Sequence record: OZ035807.1
Origin: Vectrevirus LI10P3
Direction: 5' to 3' (one strand)
DNA length: 44,534 nucleotides
The notes below the pieces were generated by a model. The model did no database searches, was not told where the DNA came from, and was given only the letters and a program-made list of their open reading frames with translations. Below, in pieces: positions 30-40,216 of this stretch. How positions within the stretch are numbered: position 1 is the stretch's first letter; each line of letters begins with the position of its first letter. A program made the translations under genes and the position numbers.

Positions 30-329
30 GTGAGCGTACACAATAAACATGCAGCTACAGAGGATGAGGTTGGCATTCTGCATGGTGCTATTACCAAAAT
101 CTTCAATAAGAAAGCACAGGCAATACTGGACACTATAGAAGAAGACCCTGATGCAGCATTACATTTAGTGTCTGGTAAGGATATTGGTGCGATGTGTAAG
201 TGGGTTCTTGATAACGGCATTACCGCCACACCTGCTGCACAGCAGGAAGAGTCCAAGTTATCTAAGCGCCTCAAGGCTATCCGAGAGGCATCCAGTGGCA
301 AGATTATTCAGTTTACAAAAGAGGAGTGA
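30..329 (+). CDS. putative terminase small subunit (T7 gp18 position)
   Basis: 99-aa ORF with GTG start and AGGAGAG RBS about 6 nt upstream; lies immediately upstream of the HNH and large terminase genes. Call is by synteny only, no motif recognised. Confidence 0.45.
   Translation: MSVHNKHAATEDEVGILHGAITKIFNKKAQAILDTIEEDPDAALHLVSGKDIGAMCKWVLDNGITATPAAQQEESKLSKRLKAIREASSGKIIQFTKEE
122..144 (+). promoter_or_regulatory. phage RNAP promoter-like sequence inside small terminase gene
   Basis: ACTGGACACTATAGAAGAAG matches the core of the repeated promoter consensus; upstream ATTTAC part is not conserved (GCAATA). Confidence 0.35.
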
Positions 330-330
330 T

Positions 331-774
331 ATGCATAGATGGTGTGAATCTCAAGGTTATACCATCTTACCTTCTGGTGTCATCCTTTCAAAGGGTGGCA
401 CCCCTCTCAAACCATTCAAGGCGGGTAGGGGTTATTTAGCAGTTAAAATTAAAAATAAAGAAGGTAAATGGCGTAATGTCTATGTTCATCAATTAGTGGC
501 TTATAAGTATTTACCTAAAACTAATAATGAAGTAAACCACAAAGACGGCGATAAGCACAACAATGATGTTAGCAACTTGGAGTGGGTAACAAGAAGCGAG
601 AATAACTATTTAAAATGCAATGGAAATGATAGGAGTGCCTTAAATAGCTATTTAGCAAGATTAAAAGATTGCTTCTTGCAAGGTAAGGGTGTAGCAGAAA
701 CCGCTAGACTTACTGGTAAAAGTGAACCAAGAGTTTCTTCTCTCTTTAAGGAGTGGCGAAATGGCAAAGGCTAG
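331..774 (+). CDS. HNH homing endonuclease
   Basis: ATG at 331 with GAGGAG RBS 4 nt upstream; motif NHKDGDKHNNDVSNLEWVTRSENN is a typical HNH signature; sits between small and large terminase genes and overlaps both. Confidence 0.7.
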   Translation: MHRWCESQGYTILPSGVILSKGGTPLKPFKAGRGYLAVKIKNKEGKWRNVYVHQLVAYKYLPKTNNEVNHKDGDKHNNDVSNLEWVTRSENNYLKCNGNDRSALNSYLARLKDCFLQGKGVAETARLTGKSEPRVSSLFKEWRNGKG

Positions 775-2659
775 AGAATCACAGGCAGAGGCATTAAAGC
801 GGTGGGAAAACCTTAAAGAACTACAAGACACTTTTAAATATACAGCGGAAGGTTTGCTTCTCTTTGCAGATACAGTTATTCATAACTTAATTGCAGGCAA
901 CCCTCATCTGATTCGTATGCAGGCGGATATCTTGAAGTTCCTATTTTACGGACACAAGTACCGCCTCATCGAAGCGCCTCGTGGTATCGCTAAGACAACA
1001 CTATCAGCAATCTATACGGTATTCCGTATTATTCATGAACCGCATAAGCGTATCATGGTTGTGTCCCAAAACGCCAAGCGAGCAGAGGAAATCGCAGGTT
1101 GGGTAGTTAAAATCTTCCGTGGCTTAGACTTTCTTGAGTTTATGCTGCCGGATATCTACGCTGGGGACCGTGCATCAGTTAAGGCGTTTGAGATTCATTA
1201 CACCCTACGTGGTAGTGATAAGTCTCCTTCTGTATCCTGTTACTCAATCGAAGCAGGTATGCAGGGTGCTCGTGCTGATATTATTCTAGCGGATGACGTA
1301 GAGTCGATGCAGAATGCTCGTACGGCAGCGGGCCGTGCCTTGCTTGAGGAGCTGACTAAGGAGTTTGAATCTATCAACCAGTTTGGGGATATCATTTACC
1401 TTGGTACACCTCAGAACGTAAACTCTATCTACAACAACCTACCTGCTCGTGGTTACTCTGTTCGTATCTGGACTGCGCGTTACCCTTCAGTAGAGCAAGA
1501 GCAATGTTATGGCGACTTCCTTGCACCTATGATTGTGCAAGATATGAAGGACAACCCAGCACTTCGCTCAGGGTACGGGTTGGATGGTAATAGTGGTGCA
1601 CCTTGTGCCCCTGAAATGTATGATGATGAAGTCCTGATTGAGAAGGAAATCTCTCAGGGTGCTGCTAAGTTCCAGCTTCAGTTCATGCTTAACACTCGCA
1701 TGATGGATGCTGACAGATACCCATTACGCCTGAACAATCTAATCTTCACCTCGTTTGGTACAGAGGAAGTCCCTGTGATGCCTACGTGGAGTAATGATTC
1801 CATAAACATCATTGGTGATGCACCTAAGTATGGTAACAAGCCTACGGATTTCATGTACAGACCTGTAGCTCGCCCATACGAATGGGGTGCTGTCTCCCGC
1901 AAGATTATGTATATTGACCCTGCGGGTGGTGGTAAGAACGGAGACGAGACGGGTGTAGCCATCGTATTCCTGCACGGCACATTCATTTATGTGTATCAGT
2001 GCTTTGGTGTACCTGGCGGATACCGAGAGTCGTCCCTGAATCGCATTGTGCAGGCCGCAAAGCAGGCGGGTGTTAAAGAGGTATTCATTGAGAAGAACTT
2101 TGGTCATGGCGCGTTTGAGGCGGTAATTAAGCCGTACTTTGAACGAGAGTGGCCTGTAACTCTGGAAGAGGATTACGCCACCGGACAGAAAGAGTTGCGT
2201 ATCATTGAGACGCTGGAGCCGCTCATGGCAGCACATAGGCTTATCTTCAATGCAGAGATGGTGAAGTCAGACTTTGAGTCGGTACAGCACTATCCGCTTG
2301 AACTACGCATGTCCTACAGTCTTTTCAATCAAATGTCGAACATAACGATTGAGAAGAACAGCCTCCGGCACGATGACCGCCTAGACGCCCTGTATGGCGC
2401 TATACGGCAATTAACTTCTCAGATAGACTATGACGAGGTTACACGGATTAATCGCCTCAGAGCGCAGGAGATGCGCGATTACATCCATGCTATGAATACA
2501 CCTCATCTACGCAGGGCAATGCTATATGGAGATTACGGTACTGAGCGAAGAGTGACCAACACTTCCGTAGCGATGCAGCAGCGAGTTTACGGGCAGAACT
2601 ACCGAAATAAATCGGCAAGCAGAAATACACTTTCTGCAAGGATTTCAAGGACTTATTAA
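761..2659 (+). CDS. terminase large subunit (T7 gp19-like)
   Basis: 632 aa from ATG 761 with AAGGAG RBS; Walker-A-like EAPRGIAKTT near N-terminus; size and position conserved. Confidence 0.85.
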   Translation: MAKARESQAEALKRWENLKELQDTFKYTAEGLLLFADTVIHNLIAGNPHLIRMQADILKFLFYGHKYRLIEAPRGIAKTTLSAIYTVFRIIHEPHKRIMVVSQNAKRAEEIAGWVVKIFRGLDFLEFMLPDIYAGDRASVKAFEIHYTLRGSDKSPSVSCYSIEAGMQGARADIILADDVESMQNARTAAGRALLEELTKEFESINQFGDIIYLGTPQNVNSIYNNLPARGYSVRIWTARYPSVEQEQCYGDFLAPMIVQDMKDNPALRSGYGLDGNSGAPCAPEMYDDEVLIEKEISQGAAKFQLQFMLNTRMMDADRYPLRLNNLIFTSFGTEEVPVMPTWSNDSINIIGDAPKYGNKPTDFMYRPVARPYEWGAVSRKIMYIDPAGGGKNGDETGVAIVFLHGTFIYVYQCFGVPGGYRESSLNRIVQAAKQAGVKEVFIEKNFGHGAFEAVIKPYFEREWPVTLEEDYATGQKELRIIETLEPLMAAHRLIFNAEMVKSDFESVQHYPLELRMSYSLFNQMSNITIEKNSLRHDDRLDALYGAIRQLTSQIDYDEVTRINRLRAQEMRDYIHAMNTPHLRRAMLYGDYGTERRVTNTSVAMQQRVYGQNYRNKSASRNTLSARISRTY

Positions 2660-4325: not shown

Positions 4326-4349
4326 ATTTACTGGACACTATAGAAGAGG
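4326..4349 (+). promoter_or_regulatory. phage RNAP promoter
   Basis: TTTACTGGACACTATAGAAGAG upstream of tailspike 1. Confidence 0.7.
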
Positions 4350-6411: not shown

Positions 6412-8124
6412 ATGCTTCAAAGATTAAGTGCTTACTTGGTGAAGTACAAGAGTAAACTAACAGGTACTATTGAGCGCCTGCTATCTGATAAACTATCGGA
6501 TACAATAGATGTTGCGGATTTTGGAGTTACTCCATCTTCCAATGACAACAGGCAAGCACTTCAAGCTGCGTTCAATGCAGTCAGAGTGTTAGGCGGTGGC
6601 ACTGTATTAGTCACTAAAGCTGGCGAATATAAACTCAGTGGTACTGTTGAGATATTTGCTAATACACACTTCAAGGTTGCTAAAGGTGTAACATTTGTAC
6701 GTGACTACGAAACAGGAGATACGCTATTCAGATTATCACAAGGGCAAGCTAGTAATGTAACAGTCAGTGGAGGTATCTATGAAGGCAATGGTCACACTAA
6801 GGGAGATACACCTTTTGTAGTATTTGCATCTACTAGTAATAATGATTTGAAGTTTGAAGGCATAACAGTTAACAATGTAGTGGACTACCACGCCATAGAT
6901 TTAGCAGATTGGAACAACGTAGTTATTCGTGATTGTAAATTCCTAGGTTTTAAGAATACAGGCAGTCGTAACTTCTCAGAGGCTATACAGTTAGACCCAG
7001 GTCTTATTACAGTTGGTCACTATGTACAGTCAAGTGGTATGCTGGTGGAGAATTGCTATGCTGGTCCAAACACAGAATCAGGGTTTGGAGGTTATGGTGC
7101 ACTAATTGGAAATCACGCCTCAGCTTACGGTGTACAGGACAACAATATCCGTATCTTGAATTGCACTACAGATGGTGCTCTCTTTGCAGGTGTACGTGTA
7201 TTTAACTGGAAAAACTGGACAGTGCGTGGTTGCACATTTAGGAACTCTAATGCAAGAGGTGTTCATGTTACACCTGTTTCCTCTCAAACTAAACCGCAAG
7301 GAACTCGACAAGGTAGTATTGTAGATTGTACTTTTGATGGCGTAAGAACACCAGTGCTAATTGCTGCACCATCTTGGCCTTTTACCGATATTAGTGACAT
7401 TTGGCATGACCATATTGAAATTTCTAATAATACTATGATCCTCACAGAGGATGTATCCTATGGTGTAGATGCAAGGTGGTGTAAGAATTTAATTGTAAAA
7501 GGTAATACAGGCTCTGGTGGCTTAGGGTTAATCGGTTTACGCTTTGGGACAAAATACCACATCGAAGGTAATACTTGGGAAAACGGAAGAGGTAGTGGGA
7601 TTTGGTTAGGTGAGTCTGATGCTACTACATTCATTGGTACTGGATTATCGGGCGAAGGTATACTTAGTCGTAATATCCTCTCTAAATTAGGGCAATATGG
7701 TATTCATGTAAACTGCAAGGTTGGCGGTCTAGTGATTAAGGCTAATAATATGAAGGAAGTGTCTACAGCTGAAGCAGGTAGGCGCTTCATTAGCATAGAC
7801 ACAGGAGCTAACAACATCCTAGTAGAAGGTAATATTGGAGTAGATGGAGAAAGCCCTAACAAGCCAAGCCTTGGTATTCGTGTTACTTCTTCTTGTTCCA
7901 ATATTAAACTCATTGGCAATGATTGCTATGGTACACAGGCGCCTCAGAATAACCAAGGAGTCGGTTCTAGTACGGTGATTGTTTATGGACTAAATGGCAA
8001 TCCTACAACTTTAGGCGTAGGTGCACCTGTAGGCTCTTTAGCAACTGATATCAATGGGTCTGGTGGTAGTACATTGTACGTTAAAGAATCTGGTACATCT
8101 GCTCAAGGTTGGGTTGCAAAGTAG
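6412..8124 (+). CDS. tailspike 2: beta-helix depolymerase-like
   Basis: 570 aa, AGAGGAGG RBS; N-terminal VADFGVTPSSNDNRQALQAAFNA pattern typical of pectate-lyase-fold tailspikes; no C-terminal chaperone domain. Confidence 0.75.
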   Translation: MLQRLSAYLVKYKSKLTGTIERLLSDKLSDTIDVADFGVTPSSNDNRQALQAAFNAVRVLGGGTVLVTKAGEYKLSGTVEIFANTHFKVAKGVTFVRDYETGDTLFRLSQGQASNVTVSGGIYEGNGHTKGDTPFVVFASTSNNDLKFEGITVNNVVDYHAIDLADWNNVVIRDCKFLGFKNTGSRNFSEAIQLDPGLITVGHYVQSSGMLVENCYAGPNTESGFGGYGALIGNHASAYGVQDNNIRILNCTTDGALFAGVRVFNWKNWTVRGCTFRNSNARGVHVTPVSSQTKPQGTRQGSIVDCTFDGVRTPVLIAAPSWPFTDISDIWHDHIEISNNTMILTEDVSYGVDARWCKNLIVKGNTGSGGLGLIGLRFGTKYHIEGNTWENGRGSGIWLGESDATTFIGTGLSGEGILSRNILSKLGQYGIHVNCKVGGLVIKANNMKEVSTAEAGRRFISIDTGANNILVEGNIGVDGESPNKPSLGIRVTSSCSNIKLIGNDCYGTQAPQNNQGVGSSTVIVYGLNGNPTTLGVGAPVGSLATDINGSGGSTLYVKESGTSAQGWVAK

Positions 8125-8135
8125 TAGGAAGTTGA

Positions 8136-8285
8136 ATGCCATTAATCAAATCAGTTAAGCAAAGTGCTGTACACCAGAACACAGAAGAACTCATTCAATC
8201 AGGACGTGACCCTAAGCAAGCCTATGCGATTGCCAAGGATGTACAACGTCGTGCTATGAAGAAACCTTCTGCATCTTCTGCGTAA
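8136..8285 (+). CDS. hypothetical small protein
   Basis: 49-aa ORF (MPLIKSVKQSAVHQ...) with AGGAAG RBS; no recognisable motif. Confidence 0.3.
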   Translation: MPLIKSVKQSAVHQNTEELIQSGRDPKQAYAIAKDVQRRAMKKPSASSA

Positions 8286-9131
8286 GCAGGTTAATATCTT
8301 AGTGTACACAAGGGCAGACCTAGGTTTGCTCTTAGTGTATTTACAATGGAGGTCTTATGTATATACCTATGGAAGCAATAGTAGGTTGCCTATGCTTGTT
8401 GATAGGTTTCGTTATAGGCTTACTAGTAAATCCTTAGTCCTGTACAAGGATTAACCAAAGTCAAAATTTTAATATAGGCGTGTGTGAGGTGTCTCGCCCT
8501 CGCCCTCGCCGGATTTCCCCCATATGGGGCCGCGTTGCGGTTGGCTTGGGAATTGGGCTGGGCTGGTCCGTCTTCGACGGGTGGGCCGAGGTCTGCCGAG
8601 GCTTGCTCTTAGTGGGAGCACAAGGAGAACGCCTAGGAAGCGCTAGGGCACGCCTTAGTATTGGACAAGGTGATTGCCTTAGTGAAGCCTCTTAGTGCAT
8701 TCCTGAGGTCATTCAGGGCGCTTATGAGGGATTGACAGGGTGGATGGGCGTGGGCTATCTGTTCGTTTCGTTCACTCCGCTTGCGCTACGTTCACTCGCT
8801 CACGTGTACCTTAGGTTATTCCTTGATGGATAGCTTAGGTTAGCCTTAGTGGATTACCTTAGTTAAAGCCTTAGTGCTTCACTTAGTATCAGCTTAGTAG
8901 TGTACCTTAGTAAGTATTAGTGTCTTCTCTTAGTGATTGCACATGCAAGCATGTAAGATGCCATTAGGTCGCGGTCGGTAGACCGCTAAAGAAGGAGAAT
9001 AGTAATAAGATGCAGTAGGAGGAACACCAGAAACCTAGCCAACCTAGCCTATCCTAGCTCTGTATCTATTGCTTTTCCTTAGTCTAACATGTGAGACAAC
9101 CTAGATTTATCTTAGTGATGATATCTTAGTG

Positions 9132-9160
9132 TTGACAAGGCCATCTCAATATAATACTAT
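9132..9160 (+). promoter_or_regulatory. candidate host sigma70 early promoter
   Basis: TTGACA - 17 bp - TACTAT read directly. Confidence 0.4.
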
Positions 9161-9199
9161 TCATCACGTAGGCAGCACTGAGGTGCTTAGTAGCCAGCT

Positions 9200-9260
9200 A
9201 GTAAGGCATACGAAGAGACTAGCGCTTACATTGCTCTTTAACAATTTGCTTAGTGTAACC
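9200..9260 (+). promoter_or_regulatory. RNase III-like processing element
   Basis: Contains GCTCTTTAACAAT, a motif I recall from the T7 R0.3 RNase III site; recurs three times upstream of early genes. Confidence 0.35.
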
Positions 9261-9303
9261 TATGTATGCCGTGGTTAATTACTTATTGAATGAGGGATTA
9301 ACT

Positions 9304-9483
9304 ATGACATTAAACAACCGTGAACTATCCGTTCTCTTCACTCTGTTGTGCTACATGATTCGTAACAACAAATTGCTTACAGATGACGAGTTGGCACTGT
9401 ATCATCGCTTTCTTAACGAAGGTTGGACCGATACAGTTAATCAACACCGTAACATGATAGATGAGTTGAGGGAGGGTAAATAA
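9304..9483 (+). CDS. hypothetical early protein
   Basis: 59 aa from ATG 9304 with GAGGGA RBS. Confidence 0.5.
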   Translation: MTLNNRELSVLFTLLCYMIRNNKLLTDDELALYHRFLNEGWTDTVNQHRNMIDELREGK

Positions 9484-9707
9484 TGTATCAACATGAGGTA
9501 TTCTTTGAATCAGCTAGCGAAGCTATTCGCTTCTTTGAGGACATGCTGCGAAATGGTGTAGGTGTGCATGTACATAGCTTTCTACTAGATTATGACACTG
9601 AATATCACCGAGTTACCTTAGTATCTGAGTATGACAACCAAGTCATTACTGAGTATCTAGGCAGTGAAGATTACGATTACGATGAAGTAATCACGACAAA
9701 TCTCTAA
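9483..9707 (+). CDS. hypothetical early protein (acidic C-terminus)
   Basis: 74 aa; AGGGAGGG RBS; start overlaps upstream stop (TAAATG). Confidence 0.55.
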   Translation: MYQHEVFFESASEAIRFFEDMLRNGVGVHVHSFLLDYDTEYHRVTLVSEYDNQVITEYLGSEDYDYDEVITTNL

Positions 9708-9715
9708 ATTAACTG

Positions 9716-9744
9716 TTGACAGCCACGGCATACAAGGTTACATT
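9716..9744 (+). promoter_or_regulatory. candidate host sigma70 early promoter
   Basis: TTGACA - 17 bp - TACATT. Confidence 0.4.
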
Positions 9745-9835
9745 AAGCATCAAGACGGCGACGTCTTTAAACATCCCGCTCTTTAACAATACGGTTTGTG
9801 TCTTGATAGGCTAACTAACTAACTAAGGTAATTAT
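9745..9835 (+). promoter_or_regulatory. RNase III-like processing element
   Basis: GCTCTTTAACAAT plus long-range complementarity ATCAAGAC/GTCTTGAT and CTAACTAACTAA tail. Confidence 0.4.
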
Positions 9836-9836
9836 C

Positions 9837-9947
9837 ATGAAAGGTTTAATTTGTGTAGAACGTATGGTCAATGGTAAACTTGAAATATTACCACTGGAAA
9901 ACCAATCTAGCTTCAAAGAGTGGTATGGCTGTTTCTCACTGATTTAA
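9837..9947 (+). CDS. hypothetical small early protein
   Basis: 36-aa ORF (MKGLICVERMVNGK...) between two RNase III-like elements; weak RBS. Confidence 0.25.
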   Translation: MKGLICVERMVNGKLEILPLENQSSFKEWYGCFSLI

Positions 9948-9959
9948 GGTAAAGGCTGG

Positions 9960-10085
9960 CACTAGTCAGCCTATCAAGGCGCAAACCAAGCTCTTTAACA
10001 ATTTGGATGGTAGCTTCTTAGTCTGGATAGGTTAAACCTAGGGGATTCTCTTGAGTCTCCTATAATGTAACCTAACTAACTAAAT
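9960..10085 (+). promoter_or_regulatory. RNase III-like processing element upstream of ocr
   Basis: GCTCTTTAACAATTTGG nearly identical to the motif upstream of T7 gene 0.3 as I recall it; CCTATC/GATAGG complementarity. Confidence 0.45.
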
Positions 10086-16995: not shown

Positions 16996-17156
16996 TGGAA
17001 ATTATTAAACCAGTATTGAATATCGGTATTGAGATCCTATTCATGCTTGTGATCGCAGATTATGCTGCACGATATGGATTCAAGAAAGCTGTGAAACTTA
17101 TCGTTGCATCTGGTTTTCTTATGTCAATGTTCTTTATTGTAACACGCCTTATCTAG
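16995..17156 (+). CDS. small two-helix membrane protein
   Basis: 53-aa ORF MEIIKPVLNIGIEILFMLVIADYAARYGFKKAVKLIVASGFLMSMFFIVTRLI; start overlaps primase stop. Confidence 0.4.
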   Translation: MEIIKPVLNIGIEILFMLVIADYAARYGFKKAVKLIVASGFLMSMFFIVTRLI

Positions 17157-17228
17157 TGTATTTATCAGGGCTTGTCTCACATGTGAGACAGGCTCTTATT
17201 AAGTACATTAAATAACTGGAGATTGATT

Positions 17229-18141: not shown

Positions 18142-18307
18142 ACATAGTCTTAAAATGTTCGATGGTCATGAAGACCTGCAAGCCAAGATTACTAACCAAG
18201 CCTTCCTGTTCGCACAGTTAACTATGGCTGAAGCAAAGAAGAATAGCCTGACGCGTGAACAGGTTATCAAGGAAAGTGAAGTGAAACGTAAGATTCGCAG
18301 TCGATAA
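18131..18307 (+). CDS. hypothetical small protein
   Basis: 58-aa ORF overlapping upstream stop; no clear RBS. Confidence 0.25.
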   Translation: MQNKHSLKMFDGHEDLQAKITNQAFLFAQLTMAEAKKNSLTREQVIKESEVKRKIRSR

Positions 18308-18364
18308 GTCAAGGGTTGTCTCACACGTGAGACAGCCTTTCATCATATTGATTGGAGGTGCATT

Positions 18365-37204: not shown

Positions 37205-40152
37205 TGGCAATTGAGCGACAAGCAGTACAAGGTCTGCCACAAGTGCAGGCCACTTCTCCTAATGTCATGACCTTTGCACCTCAGCGAGTTGGAGGTGTGG
37301 AGGCTGGCGTAGCTTCTACCTCCGGTAGTCGATTTATCGAAGACCTTATTCGAGCAGCCAGTAGTGTAGCTGATGTAACCACTGGTATCCTTAATCAAAA
37401 GATTGAGGAAGATAAGGTTGTTCAAATGGAGCGGGCATATAACGGATTAATGCCTTCTGAGGATGCAACTCGTGGTGGCGCTCGTGCTAACATGCTTGTC
37501 AAAGCTCAACTGCTAGCTAATGATGAAGCAGCACGAATGAAAGACATGGCTACTCGTTTCCAAGGAACGGATGACGAGTGGACACAACTTATGGTTAATT
37601 CTCGTAATGAGATGCAGAATAAGCTGTTCCAGCAATACCCTGAGTTGCAAGGTGACAAAGATACTATGCGTATGGTCACTAATGTCTTCCAAGAACAGCA
37701 GCCTCAGATTTGGGCGACACGAACCCAGCATAAACTTGACCGTGAACAAGCAGACCGTGAGGATACCTTTGACGGGCGAGTGGCTTCTACTTGGGATTCT
37801 AATATTGACCCTGAAGCATCTGGCTATGCTTTACAGGAACGAATCCGCGAAGGTCTTACTCAAGGATTACTACCTGAACAGATGCACAAGAAGTTAGTCC
37901 AGCGAGCAATTTCACTTGCACAAGGCGGTGATGTTAGCATGGCTGAAGCCCTGAAGTATGTGAAGGACGATAAGGGTGTTTCTGTTTATGCTAAGAATCC
38001 ACAGCTTATCACAGCCATCACTAGTGGTAATGCAGTTTGGGCTAGGAATAATGTAGCTGATGTAACTCGTATGTCTTTCGAAGTTAAAGAATCCTACCTT
38101 GCAGGGGATTTAACTGATGAAGAATTGTTGGAACGAGCACAGCACATTAATAATCTGACAGGTAACTCTGTCTTCTCTAATCCAGAGCTAGAGGTACTGA
38201 TGCGCCAACGGGCTAAGCAGAATGCAGAGCTAGGTGCAATGCAGGATATGCGACGTGAGCTTTACTCCGACCGCCTGACTGGCTTCCAAGGTAAGACTGA
38301 TAAAGAGAAGAAGGCTTACATTGATGTTATCAAACAGGATAGCCAACTTTATGCAGACCAGCAAATCAAACAACGTGGCTTGGACCCTTATAGTCAAGAG
38401 GCTGAAGCTATTCGTGGTGCAGTGGAAGTGCAGCGCCTACAATTCATGAACTCCAAAGGCTTAGTGGATGATACCTTTGAGTCTCGTATCAAAGCCATGG
38501 AATCTATGCTATCTCCTGAGCACTTTGCCAAGGGCGAACCACAAGAGTTGATGACTATTCGCCAGTTGTGGGAACAGTTGCCAGAAGAGGGCCGAGGTGT
38601 CTTTGGTGACACGGTGAATGGCTACATGGATAACTACAACACTGCACTACAAATGGGAGAGACACCTTTGCAGTCTGCAAGGTTTGCGCGTGAAGCACAG
38701 CAGAAATTCTCTCGTACTGAGAAGGAAACCAAGAAGTTCAACTCAGCTATTGGAGATGCACTGGATGAGGTATCTGGTGCTGGCTGGTTCGATGGTAAAA
38801 CCGAAGTGTCAGACTTAGGTAAAGCTATTGCAGAAGAGGAGTTACGAGCTAAGGCTAATATGCTGTGGTCTAGTGGTATGCGTAACATGGATTCCATCAA
38901 GAAGGCTTTAATTACTTGGGGCAATAAACGCTACACTCAAACAGAGGATGCAAAGACTTCCGGTGGCTATTTCATTAAAGGTGATTACACTTCTGCATCT
39001 GATATGCTTATGTCAGTTGGGAAAGGCGTAAATCCTACCGATGTACCTCTGGCGCTTGGTAGGTATGTAGAAACACAGATGCCAGAATTGAAGAAGGAGC
39101 TTCAAGAGTGGGAAACTAAAGATGATATATACATTGATTACAATGAACAGAAAGGTACTTTCGTGATTCGTGCTGGTGCAGCAGGTCGCCCTCTTTCTGG
39201 AGTAATCCCTGTAACCTCTTTAGATACCACTTCACTACTAGATTCTGCCTATCAGAAGAAAGTAGAGGAACGAGATAAAGGCGAGTATGTTCACCCTTAT
39301 CGTACAGATATTGGTGCACAAGAGCCTATGCCAGCTAAACCAACTGCCAAAGATATTGGTAAATTTGGACTAGCTAACTTCCTCATGTCTTCTGCTTTTG
39401 CTTCTGGTGAGAATCTGCCTTCTAACTTCGAGATTAACTATCGAGGTAATATGCAACAATTCTATGACAAGCTAGCTATGGATGAGAATAAAGATAAAGT
39501 TGGCTTTAATAAGGCAACTGGAACCTTTACTCCATATAAAGATGCTCACGGTGAGTCTATCGGTTACGGTCATTTCTTAACGGAAGAAGAGAAGCGAAAC
39601 GGGTATATTAAGATTGGTGATGAACTAGTTCCCTATCGAGGGTCTATGTCTCAGCTTACAGAGAGCAAGGCTCGCGCTCTTATGGAGCAAGATGCCAAGA
39701 AGCATGTGCCTCCTACTCGTGACTGGAAGATTCCGTTTGACCAGATGCATCCTGCACAGCAACGTGGCTTGATGGATTTAACCTACAATTTAGGTAAAGG
39801 TGGAATCCAGAACTCACCGCGTGCTCTTGCTGCATTCAAAGCTGGTAAGCTTACGGAAGGCTTTATCGAAATGCTGGGCACTGCATCAAGTGAAGGTAAG
39901 CGTATCCCTGGTCTACTGAAGCGACGCGCTGAGGCATACAATATGGCATCTGCTGGTGGTGTGCCTAAGATTACCGAAGTGGAGACTCGTGAAGATGGCT
40001 CCATGTGGGTTAGGTTTGGTGGACCTATGCCAACAGGTTCTGTCTCGGCATGGACTCATAAACGTATTGGCGCGGATGGTTGGTATCAGGTTTATGAGGC
40101 TGCACCTACCAAGTTAGCTAAAGGTTCTAAGGTAGGTAAATTTAAGTTGTAG
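37204..40152 (+). CDS. internal virion protein with C-terminal lysozyme-like domain
   Basis: 982 aa; C-terminal TPYKDAHGESIGYGHFLT resembles the T4-lysozyme YKDTEGYYTIGIGH block; GLLKRRAEAYNM further downstream. Confidence 0.65.
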   Translation: MAIERQAVQGLPQVQATSPNVMTFAPQRVGGVEAGVASTSGSRFIEDLIRAASSVADVTTGILNQKIEEDKVVQMERAYNGLMPSEDATRGGARANMLVKAQLLANDEAARMKDMATRFQGTDDEWTQLMVNSRNEMQNKLFQQYPELQGDKDTMRMVTNVFQEQQPQIWATRTQHKLDREQADREDTFDGRVASTWDSNIDPEASGYALQERIREGLTQGLLPEQMHKKLVQRAISLAQGGDVSMAEALKYVKDDKGVSVYAKNPQLITAITSGNAVWARNNVADVTRMSFEVKESYLAGDLTDEELLERAQHINNLTGNSVFSNPELEVLMRQRAKQNAELGAMQDMRRELYSDRLTGFQGKTDKEKKAYIDVIKQDSQLYADQQIKQRGLDPYSQEAEAIRGAVEVQRLQFMNSKGLVDDTFESRIKAMESMLSPEHFAKGEPQELMTIRQLWEQLPEEGRGVFGDTVNGYMDNYNTALQMGETPLQSARFAREAQQKFSRTEKETKKFNSAIGDALDEVSGAGWFDGKTEVSDLGKAIAEEELRAKANMLWSSGMRNMDSIKKALITWGNKRYTQTEDAKTSGGYFIKGDYTSASDMLMSVGKGVNPTDVPLALGRYVETQMPELKKELQEWETKDDIYIDYNEQKGTFVIRAGAAGRPLSGVIPVTSLDTTSLLDSAYQKKVEERDKGEYVHPYRTDIGAQEPMPAKPTAKDIGKFGLANFLMSSAFASGENLPSNFEINYRGNMQQFYDKLAMDENKDKVGFNKATGTFTPYKDAHGESIGYGHFLTEEEKRNGYIKIGDELVPYRGSMSQLTESKARALMEQDAKKHVPPTRDWKIPFDQMHPAQQRGLMDLTYNLGKGGIQNSPRALAAFKAGKLTEGFIEMLGTASSEGKRIPGLLKRRAEAYNMASAGGVPKITEVETREDGSMWVRFGGPMPTGSVSAWTHKRIGADGWYQVYEAAPTKLAKGSKVGKFKL

Positions 40153-40216
40153 TATCTAACTCAAGGCTTGTCTCACATGTGAGACAGGTCTTTATGATAG
40201 GCACTATGGAGGAATT

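Follow-up and report, generated by a model that had tools for sequence, protein, structure and literature searches.

A T7-type concatemer junction with a single collapsed terminal repeat predicted in the genome record of Vectrevirus LI10P3

Comparison with related phage genomes indicates that the interval 8290-9260 of the Vectrevirus LI10P3 record (OZ035807.1) is very probably the concatemer junction of a T7-type Vectrevirus phage as it was circularised by the assembler. The window, meaning the whole stretch of 44,534 nt that was analysed, contains in this interval right-unique DNA (to 8491), one copy of a 266-bp repeat (8492-8757) and left-unique DNA (from 8758), in that order, and the interval sits between the last late genes and the first early gene (Table 1). 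The real ATG of that early gene is placed at 9304, because the PHROG match of the open reading frame 9262-9483 starts only at residue 15. The original prediction, made from the sequence letters, had put a physical genome terminus here, and the match of 8492-8757 to the exact end repeats of linear relatives argues that it was right.

By nucleotide identity and collinearity, the phage is assigned to Vectrevirus, in the K1E/K1-5 group of the Autographiviridae. The region is matched by 111 phage records that span Vectrevirus (K1E, K1-5), Zindervirus (SP6), and related Klebsiella and Citrobacter phages, with Vectrevirus T147P1 as the best match (94.7% identity over 1.3 kb). Many Vectrevirus records are 90-97% identical both over the region and over the window's own end-to-start junction. 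When the last 500 nt and the first 500 nt of the window were joined, they were contiguous, as a single aligned piece, in many relatives, and the joint falls inside the tail-fibre/holin/terminase genes of those phages; the window is thus a complete, circularly permuted genome. Its first base lies 29 nt ahead of the small-terminase gene, a starting point that re-orientation software typically gives, and the relatives' records also annotate terminase at the homologous genes. Ten phage-type promoters of the SP6/K1E type (TTACTGGACACTATAGAAG) are present in the window, all on the + strand, and the genome carries both a terminase pair and promoters for its own single-subunit RNA polymerase, as would a phage with a T7-like junction.

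Table 1. Features at and around the predicted concatemer junction, with positions in the window.
Feature	Position (nt)	Strand	Remarks
Small terminase gene, terS	30-329		phrog_891, E = 9.5e-26
HNH endonuclease gene	184-774		
Large terminase gene, terL	722-2659		phrog_17672, E = 2.3e-238
Tailspike gene	6412-8124		Late gene left of the junction
gp48-like ORF	8136-8285		Late gene left of the junction
Scattered right-unique heptamers	8298, 8331, 8433	+	Only 8298 and 8331 conserved in relatives
Stem-loop	8304-8340	+	Just 3' of the gp48-like gene; RNA fold -20 kcal/mol
26-aa hydrophobic micro-protein (gp49-like)	8357-8437	+	Last ORF before the right end; phrog_37692, E = 6.7e-12
Conserved right-unique block AACCAAAGTCAAAATTTTAATATAGGCGTGTGTGAGGTG	8453-8491	+	Adjoins the predicted cut site on its left
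ORF-track ORF	8480-8695	+	71 aa, GTG start
Predicted direct terminal repeat, single collapsed copy	8492-8757	+	266 bp, 60% G+C; homologous to relatives' terminal repeats
(CTCGCC)x3, CTCGCCCTCGCCCTCGCC	8493-8510	+	Left-terminal repeat motif
Palindrome CCCCATATGGGG	8518-8529	+	Left-terminal repeat motif
Heptamers within the terminal repeat	8608, 8654, 8678, 8691 (8608-8697)	+	CTTAGTR; kept in most Vectrevirus relatives; SP6 keeps one
Right-boundary element	8731-8770	+	Invariant TTGACAG, then GGGCGTGGGCTA / TCTGTTCGTTTCG; repeat predicted to end between A8757 and T8758
Main phased heptamer array, left-unique	8810-8935	+	Ten units: CTTAGG x2, CTTAGT x7, ATTAGT x1
Highly conserved non-coding block	8936-9072	+	137 bp between the array and the first host promoter; identity 0.92
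Heptamers	9078, 9111, 9125	+	9125 copy adjoins the promoter -35 hexamer
Palindrome GTCTAACATGTGAGAC	9082-9097	+	
First sigma-70-type early promoter	9132-9160	+	TTGACA, 17 nt, TACTAT; 10/12 consensus matches
Last two heptamers	9186, 9249	+	Leader of the first early gene
Invariant GCTCTTTAACAAT	9233-9245	+	Early-gene leader; recurs at 9778 and 9990

Exact terminal repeats were measured from both ends of the linear reference records of T7 (160 bp), SP6 (174 bp), K1-5 (234 bp), Mt1B1_P10 (267 bp, annotated as a DTR), and K1E (AM084415; 288 bp); for mutPK1A2 the length is that of its annotated 'redundant repeat' (286 bp). The 266-bp segment aligns boundary for boundary with the terminal repeats of K1E, K1-5, Mt1B1_P10, mutPK1A2, and SP6, and the variation in repeat length among the relatives consists of internal indels. 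In all SP6-group genomes the repeat starts with (TC)TCGCC or TCTCTCGG directly after the conserved block CCAAAGTCAAAATTTTGATATAGGCGTGTGT, and ends with GGGCGTGGGCTA, followed by TCTGTTCG. The corresponding junctions in the window (boundary marked by a slash) are gtgaggtg/TCTCGCCC between 8491 and 8492 and GGGCTA/tctgttcg between 8757 and 8758. In BLAST alignments, the homologue of 8757 is the last base of at least seven records and that of 8492 the first base of two; position 8492 corresponds to the first base in the records of K1E, fTuEco01, and ACG-C91, and position 8757 to the last in those of K1E, K1-5, Mt1B1_P10, mutPK1A2, KAW1A4500, AAPEc6, and EC120. Two separately deposited SP6 records share the same first base, and the best ungapped register with nt 1-40 of T7 is found at 8492 (23/40 identities, vs 11-15 for shifts of 1-2 nt). 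For the SP6-like phage UAB_Phi78, Bal31 digestion combined with run-off sequencing located the ends experimentally (PMC4837284), and its annotated repeat is displaced 12-15 nt leftward of the SP6 boundaries. Because of this offset, and because the deposited left ends of the relatives vary by 1-2 nt (TCTCGCC, CTCGCC, TCGCC), the cut positions 8492 and 8757 carry an uncertainty of a few nucleotides.

The G+C-rich block that had been proposed at 8480-8700 is a real island (0.602 at 8492-8757 vs 0.449 in the window and 0.37-0.42 in the flanks), with limits that were slightly off those of the repeat. No second copy of the 266-bp segment is present in the window. One copy, together with an end-to-start junction that is contiguous in relatives, points to a circularised assembly with a collapsed repeat, as had been suspected; the loss of terminal repeats from short-read assemblies of T7-like genomes has been documented (PMC10438801). 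On the homology with linear records, the virion DNA should be a linear molecule that begins with TCTC at 8492 and ends with GGGCTA at 8757, carries the repeat at both ends, and measures approximately 44,800 bp. An IMG/VR scan for CTCGCCCTCGCCCTCGCCGG returned 39 loci, many of them unrelated G+C-rich matches and none at a contig end. The terminal repeat, although correctly identified, is already known and ordinary, the same element being carried by roughly 100 deposited genomes.

The (CTCGCC)x3 motif and the palindrome named in the original prediction are both present at the left end of the repeat, in a segment (8492-8530) with an identity of 0.89 across 9 relatives. The right-unique block that adjoins it has an identity of 0.90 over 9 relatives, vs 0.53-0.59 just upstream, and is also found in SP6 and in Klebsiella phage HY. 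From this conservation, the block, together with the ~40 nt that open the repeat, is likely the recognition context, or a candidate for it, of the left-end cut by terminase. The six bases before the predicted cut are GAGGTG here and in Mt1B1_P10 and CAGCTC in K1E and K1-5.

Farther to the left, the stem-loop behind the gp48-like gene (z = -3.5; 0/200 shuffles as stable) was flagged as terminator-like, and SP6 preserves the stem despite changes on both arms. It is flanked and overlapped by the CTTAGTG copies at 8298 and 8331 and is possibly a hairpin terminator or attenuator of late transcripts. RNA folding of the cut-site region, the right boundary, 8930-9075, and the early leader gave z values of -1.3 to +0.1, none of them a significant gain in stability over the shuffled sequences; among the RNA folds computed, only the 8304-8340 hairpin stands out. 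The micro-ORF that follows it has a GGAGG ribosome-binding site upstream and a stop codon within a heptamer (CCTTAGT, 8432-8438); its SP6 homologue could be aligned, and in other relatives the segment is variable or replaced (identity 0.53).

At the right edge of the repeat the sequence is GGGCTATCTGTTCGTTTCG, in which TATCTGTT (8756-8763) fits the class II signal HATCTGTT of T7-type RNA polymerases. In full, this signal consists of HATCTGTT and a T-rich tract (PMC11347151). The core ATCTGTT occurs once on the + (transcribed) strand of the 44.5 kb, at 8757-8763, and is followed by the moderately T-rich stretch CGTTTCGTT. The same ATCTGTT stands at the same repeat boundary in SP6, K1-5, K1E, Mt1B1_P10, Klebsiella phage HY, and T7, and 8758-8770 is the best-conserved piece of the region (identity 0.96). 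At the T7 concatemer-junction site the polymerase is reported to pause rather than terminate. Compared with the class II signals of the PTH terminator and the T7 concatemer junction, TATCTGTT matches the consensus but has no uninterrupted U-run after it, and pausing, not termination, is therefore to be expected. By analogy, TATCTGTT is a predicted pause site of the phage RNA polymerase. A sigma-70 promoter directed outward from the repeat was also weighed for the TTGACAG at 8731 and rejected as unsupported: the only -10 candidates, CTATCT and TATCTG, are each missing the key A2 or T6, and the promoter scan made no call there.

The literature places the class II signal at the T7 concatemer junction, where the polymerase-lysozyme complex is reported to pause, to interact with gp18/gp19, and to start maturation and packaging (PMC3276506). 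A T7-like mechanism would, by the same analogy, be the best-supported account of the junction described here. Replication would produce concatemers in which adjacent genomes share one repeat, and late transcription by the phage RNA polymerase, running rightward through the junction, would pause at TATCTGTT. The paused complex would recruit the terminase encoded near the start of the window (30-329 and 722-2659), which would cut sequence-specifically at both repeat boundaries; DNA synthesis would duplicate the repeat, and DNA would be packaged from the right end. We infer the pausing, the cutting and its chemistry, and the duplication of the repeat from T7, and likewise infer a role for the heptamers.

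The original prediction counted about 20 heptamers, in good agreement with the 16 exact CTTAGTR and 19 CTTAGT found on the + strand of 8290-9260, or 22 with near variants (CTTAGG x2, ATTAGT x1). There are none on the - strand, and the rate in the rest of the window gives an expectation of 0.40 CTTAGT per strand (Poisson P ~1.6e-25). Near variants included, three copies lie in right-unique DNA, four in the repeat, and 15 in left-unique DNA, so that heptamers do occur within the repeat as well as to its left and right; the two flanking arrays that had been described are, however, three scattered copies on the left, four inside the block, and one true phased array on the right, with five further copies beyond it as far as 9249. 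This array occupies nt 319-444 from the left end, with a spacing of 10-13 bp, one gap of 24, and a mean period of 11.9 bp. Its 6-nt cores are 96% conserved vs 83% for the spacers in nine relatives, and homologous arrays exist in K1-5, SP6 (exact 12-bp period), and Klebsiella phage HY. Most single heptamer copies are invariant even in SP6. Because the cores are better conserved than the spacers, strand-specific, and paralleled in T7, the co-oriented heptamers are, on comparative evidence, selected cis-elements of the chromosome ends that are strand-specific and under purifying selection. The reverse complement of the heptamer, CACTAAG, resembles the promoter core CACTATAG, a very short match.

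Between the array and the first host promoter, the conserved non-coding block (8936-9072) contains a palindrome (ACATGCAAGCATGT), the hairpin GCGGTC-GGTA-GACCGC, two copies of TAAGATGC, and three of CCTAGC. The palindrome is swapped for ATAGCTAAAGCTAT or ATAGCTACGCTAT in other phages with palindromy retained. Approximately 100 phage records match the block and, among those listed, only hypothetical-protein calls are annotated under the match. An Rfam scan of 8100-9900, with E up to 10, gave only chance-level snoRNA and lncRNA matches. The early promoter stands 641 nt from the predicted left end, a position that agrees with that of T7 A1-A3, and an extra CTTAGTG in the promoter spacer of K1-5, Mt1B1_P10, and T147P1 is lost here.

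The junction shares its layout with that of the SP6/K1-5/K1E group (Molineuxvirinae: Zindervirus, Vectrevirus): the boundaries (TCTC at the start, GGGCTA/TCTGTT at the end), CTTAGT heptamers, pre-cut block, and conserved left-unique block are all the same, and Klebsiella Molineuxvirinae phage HY is laid out likewise. Similarity to T7 is low overall outside the motifs. The T7 repeat motif cited in the original prediction, CCCCCATAGGGGG, is indeed present at nt 26-38 of NC_001604, and the analogy extends beyond what had been claimed: both phages have TCTC at nt 1-4 and, in the same register, TTCCCCCATA at nt 24-33, ATCTGTT stands at the right repeat boundary of both, and host promoters A1-A3 are found at nt 498-750 of T7. 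The proposed parallel in heptamers also holds, as CTAAAG occurs in T7 on one strand only, inside its repeat and on both sides (NC_001604), with three exact copies in the repeat, eight to its right (nt 176-333, 13-bp period), two left of the right repeat, and none on the other strand; in both phages a phased array with a 12-13 bp period lies just right of the left repeat. The two phages differ in the heptamer itself (CTTAGTR vs CTAAAG), in the repeat, which is longer here, G+C-rich, and provided with (CTCGCC)x3, and in the boundary, which is shifted by one base (CTA/TCTGTT here vs CCCT/ATCTGTT in T7, where the record has the repeat ending in CCCT/ATCTGTTACAG). The CCTAAAG arrays flanking the T7 repeat are named SRL and SRR in the T7 literature. 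T7 (Teseptimavirus) also has phiOL at 405 and phiOR at 39229, whereas no phage promoter stands beside the junction here: none was found between 4346 and 14643 with up to 3 mismatches, and the nearest upstream is at 4328. In this respect the SP6 group does not differ from LI10P3.

Other explanations of the island concern its ends and its coding capacity. The region could be an ordinary intergenic or regulatory island in a phage that packages by the headful, with permuted ends and no fixed terminus here, as a circularly permuted window with one copy of the sequence would also look. This is very improbable, since many independent linear records of relatives begin and end with exact copies of this sequence whose boundaries agree, SP6-like ends have been mapped experimentally in UAB_Phi78, the terminase genes belong to PHROG families and are annotated as terminase in relatives, and the point at which the window opens is a typical result of software re-orientation. 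Still less credible, to the point of being nearly negligible, is that the island encodes a small protein, either the ORF 8480-8695 or an opposite-strand ORF annotated in some relatives. A frame of 71 codons is open, and several GenBank records annotate hypothetical proteins in the segment. The frame is intact, however, only in the two closest of nine aligned relatives; in the other seven, stop codons or indels (1, 4, 8, 22, 25, 26, and 32 nt) break it. Each of the six frames of the segment has runs of 40 or more codons free of stops, as would be expected of stop-poor, G+C-rich DNA; no PHROG family was matched by the ORF, whereas the flanking micro-ORFs do match; and the start codon lies outside the repeat, which would truncate the ORF at the left genome end. 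Because the frame is broken in 7/9 relatives and has no PHROG family, the ORF is judged non-coding, as had been supposed, its openness coming from the stop-poor G+C-rich repeat.

A further alternative accepts the terminal repeat and reads the heptamers as sites of the iteron or operator kind, through which a factor for replication or transcription would control the leading ~760 bp, for example at early host promoters or a left-end origin. The copies do extend over nt 117-758, which takes in the first sigma-70 promoter and the DNA upstream of it, one of them adjoins the -35 hexamer and another lies in the promoter spacer of relatives, and direct repeats phased at ~12 bp resemble iterons. As far as is known, however, replication origins of the T7 group are promoter-primed, no initiator or repressor gene was identified, and copies are also found in right-unique DNA and in the repeat, so that heptamers stand to either side of the junction, as they do in T7. 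On balance we regard iterons or operators as an unlikely explanation. Most likely, the heptamers would serve as phased sites to which a protein of packaging or end recognition binds. To our knowledge, no function has been established for the heptamer arrays of T7 or for those of any T7-like phage, and no paper on heptamer-array function was found in the open-access literature. [quoted passage not shown]

The value of these results is mainly practical and lies in annotation. We recommend that the record be re-oriented to begin at 8492 and given back the second repeat copy, for a true length of ~44,800 bp, and that ORFs predicted within the repeat be removed; several GenBank relatives list ORFs of this kind as hypothetical proteins. 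Having the right ends is important when a genome is rebooted or synthesised, when taxonomic identity is calculated, and when a phage-therapy dossier is prepared. Judged from the genomes compared, the analysis shows that the whole junction architecture, with the TCTC end, CCCCCATA in register, one-strand heptamer arrays, and ATCTGTT at the repeat edge, is conserved across Studiervirinae and Molineuxvirinae. From the sequencing of the T7 genome onward, we know of no function that has been assigned to these arrays in T7-like phages, and a binding array for a factor that marks the chromosome ends, if the tentative proposal is true, would assign them one.

Between the main phased array of CTTAGTR heptamers and the first host promoter (a sigma-70-type early promoter) lies a non-coding block that is 92% conserved among nine relatives, SP6 among them, exceeding the conservation of the neighboring genes. 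The block contains the palindrome ACATGCAAGCATGT, in whose place other phages carry ATAGCTAAAGCTAT or ATAGCTACGCTAT; four pairs are altered on both sides relative to these replacements, and palindromy is retained. The palindrome is followed on its 3' side by an invariant hairpin (GCGGTC-GGTA-GACCGC), two copies of TAAGATGC and three of CCTAGC in 10-bp phase. An Rfam search of the block returned no match, and only hypothetical-protein calls are annotated under it among the records listed. Coordinates of the features are collected in the table.

Features of the LI10P3 window outside and around the concatemer junction
Feature	Coordinates	Remarks
Small terminase gene	30-329	
HNH endonuclease ORF	184-774	between small and large terminase genes, overlapping both
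Large terminase gene	722-2659	
Stable stem-loop	8304-8340	directly after gp48-like gene; RNA fold z = -3.5
Hydrophobic micro-ORF	8357-8437	26 aa (MYIPMEAIVGCLCLLIGFVIGLLVNP); GGAGG ribosome-binding site
Conserved non-coding block	8936-9072	about 137 bp; between heptamer array and first host promoter
Palindrome GTCTAACATGTGAGAC	9082-9097	upstream of early promoter
GGCTTGTCTCACATGTGAGACAGGC family	17154-17199, 18298-18343, 40150-40195	three copies
GCTCTTTAACAAT	9233-9245, 9778-9790, 9990-10002	three early-region copies; a small early gene lies downstream of every one

The palindrome GTCTAACATGTGAGAC is related to the GGCTTGTCTCACATGTGAGACAGGC family found elsewhere in the genome, and has a compensatory variant, GTCCAACACGTTGGAC, in SP6-type relatives. 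It is a possible hairpin terminator or regulatory site.

Long homopolymer runs, aligned to the window at about 8520 and 9072, occur in the records of two relatives: vB_EcoP_B (KY295891) has a poly-T run 3' of TCTATTGC as well as a duplicated segment, and 101101UKE1 (MZ234012) has a poly-C run at the palindrome. These runs have the appearance of artefacts of assembly or sequencing at the genome ends.

The window opens 29 nt 5' of the small terminase gene, and its two ends (1 and 44534) are contiguous in relatives; the assembly is circularised and then re-oriented to this gene rather than to the physical end. The nearby HNH endonuclease ORF is absent from some relatives.

The stem-loop after the gp48-like gene, with the heptamer at 8331 forming part of its 3' arm, is retained in SP6 despite changes on both arms, and is possibly a terminator or attenuator of late transcripts ahead of the junction. 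The micro-ORF matches phrog_37692 and SP6 gp49, and unrelated small ORFs take the place of this segment in other Vectrevirus genomes.

On the early side, the start called at 9262 for ORF 9262-9483 is probably wrong. The phrog_9275 family match starts only at residue 15, and an alternative ATG with a GAGGG ribosome-binding site is located at 9304, from which the reading agrees with gene 1 of phage K1-5 (59 aa). The first copy of GCTCTTTAACAAT is invariant across all relatives examined, including SP6, and the motif might serve in early mRNA as a signal for processing or regulation.
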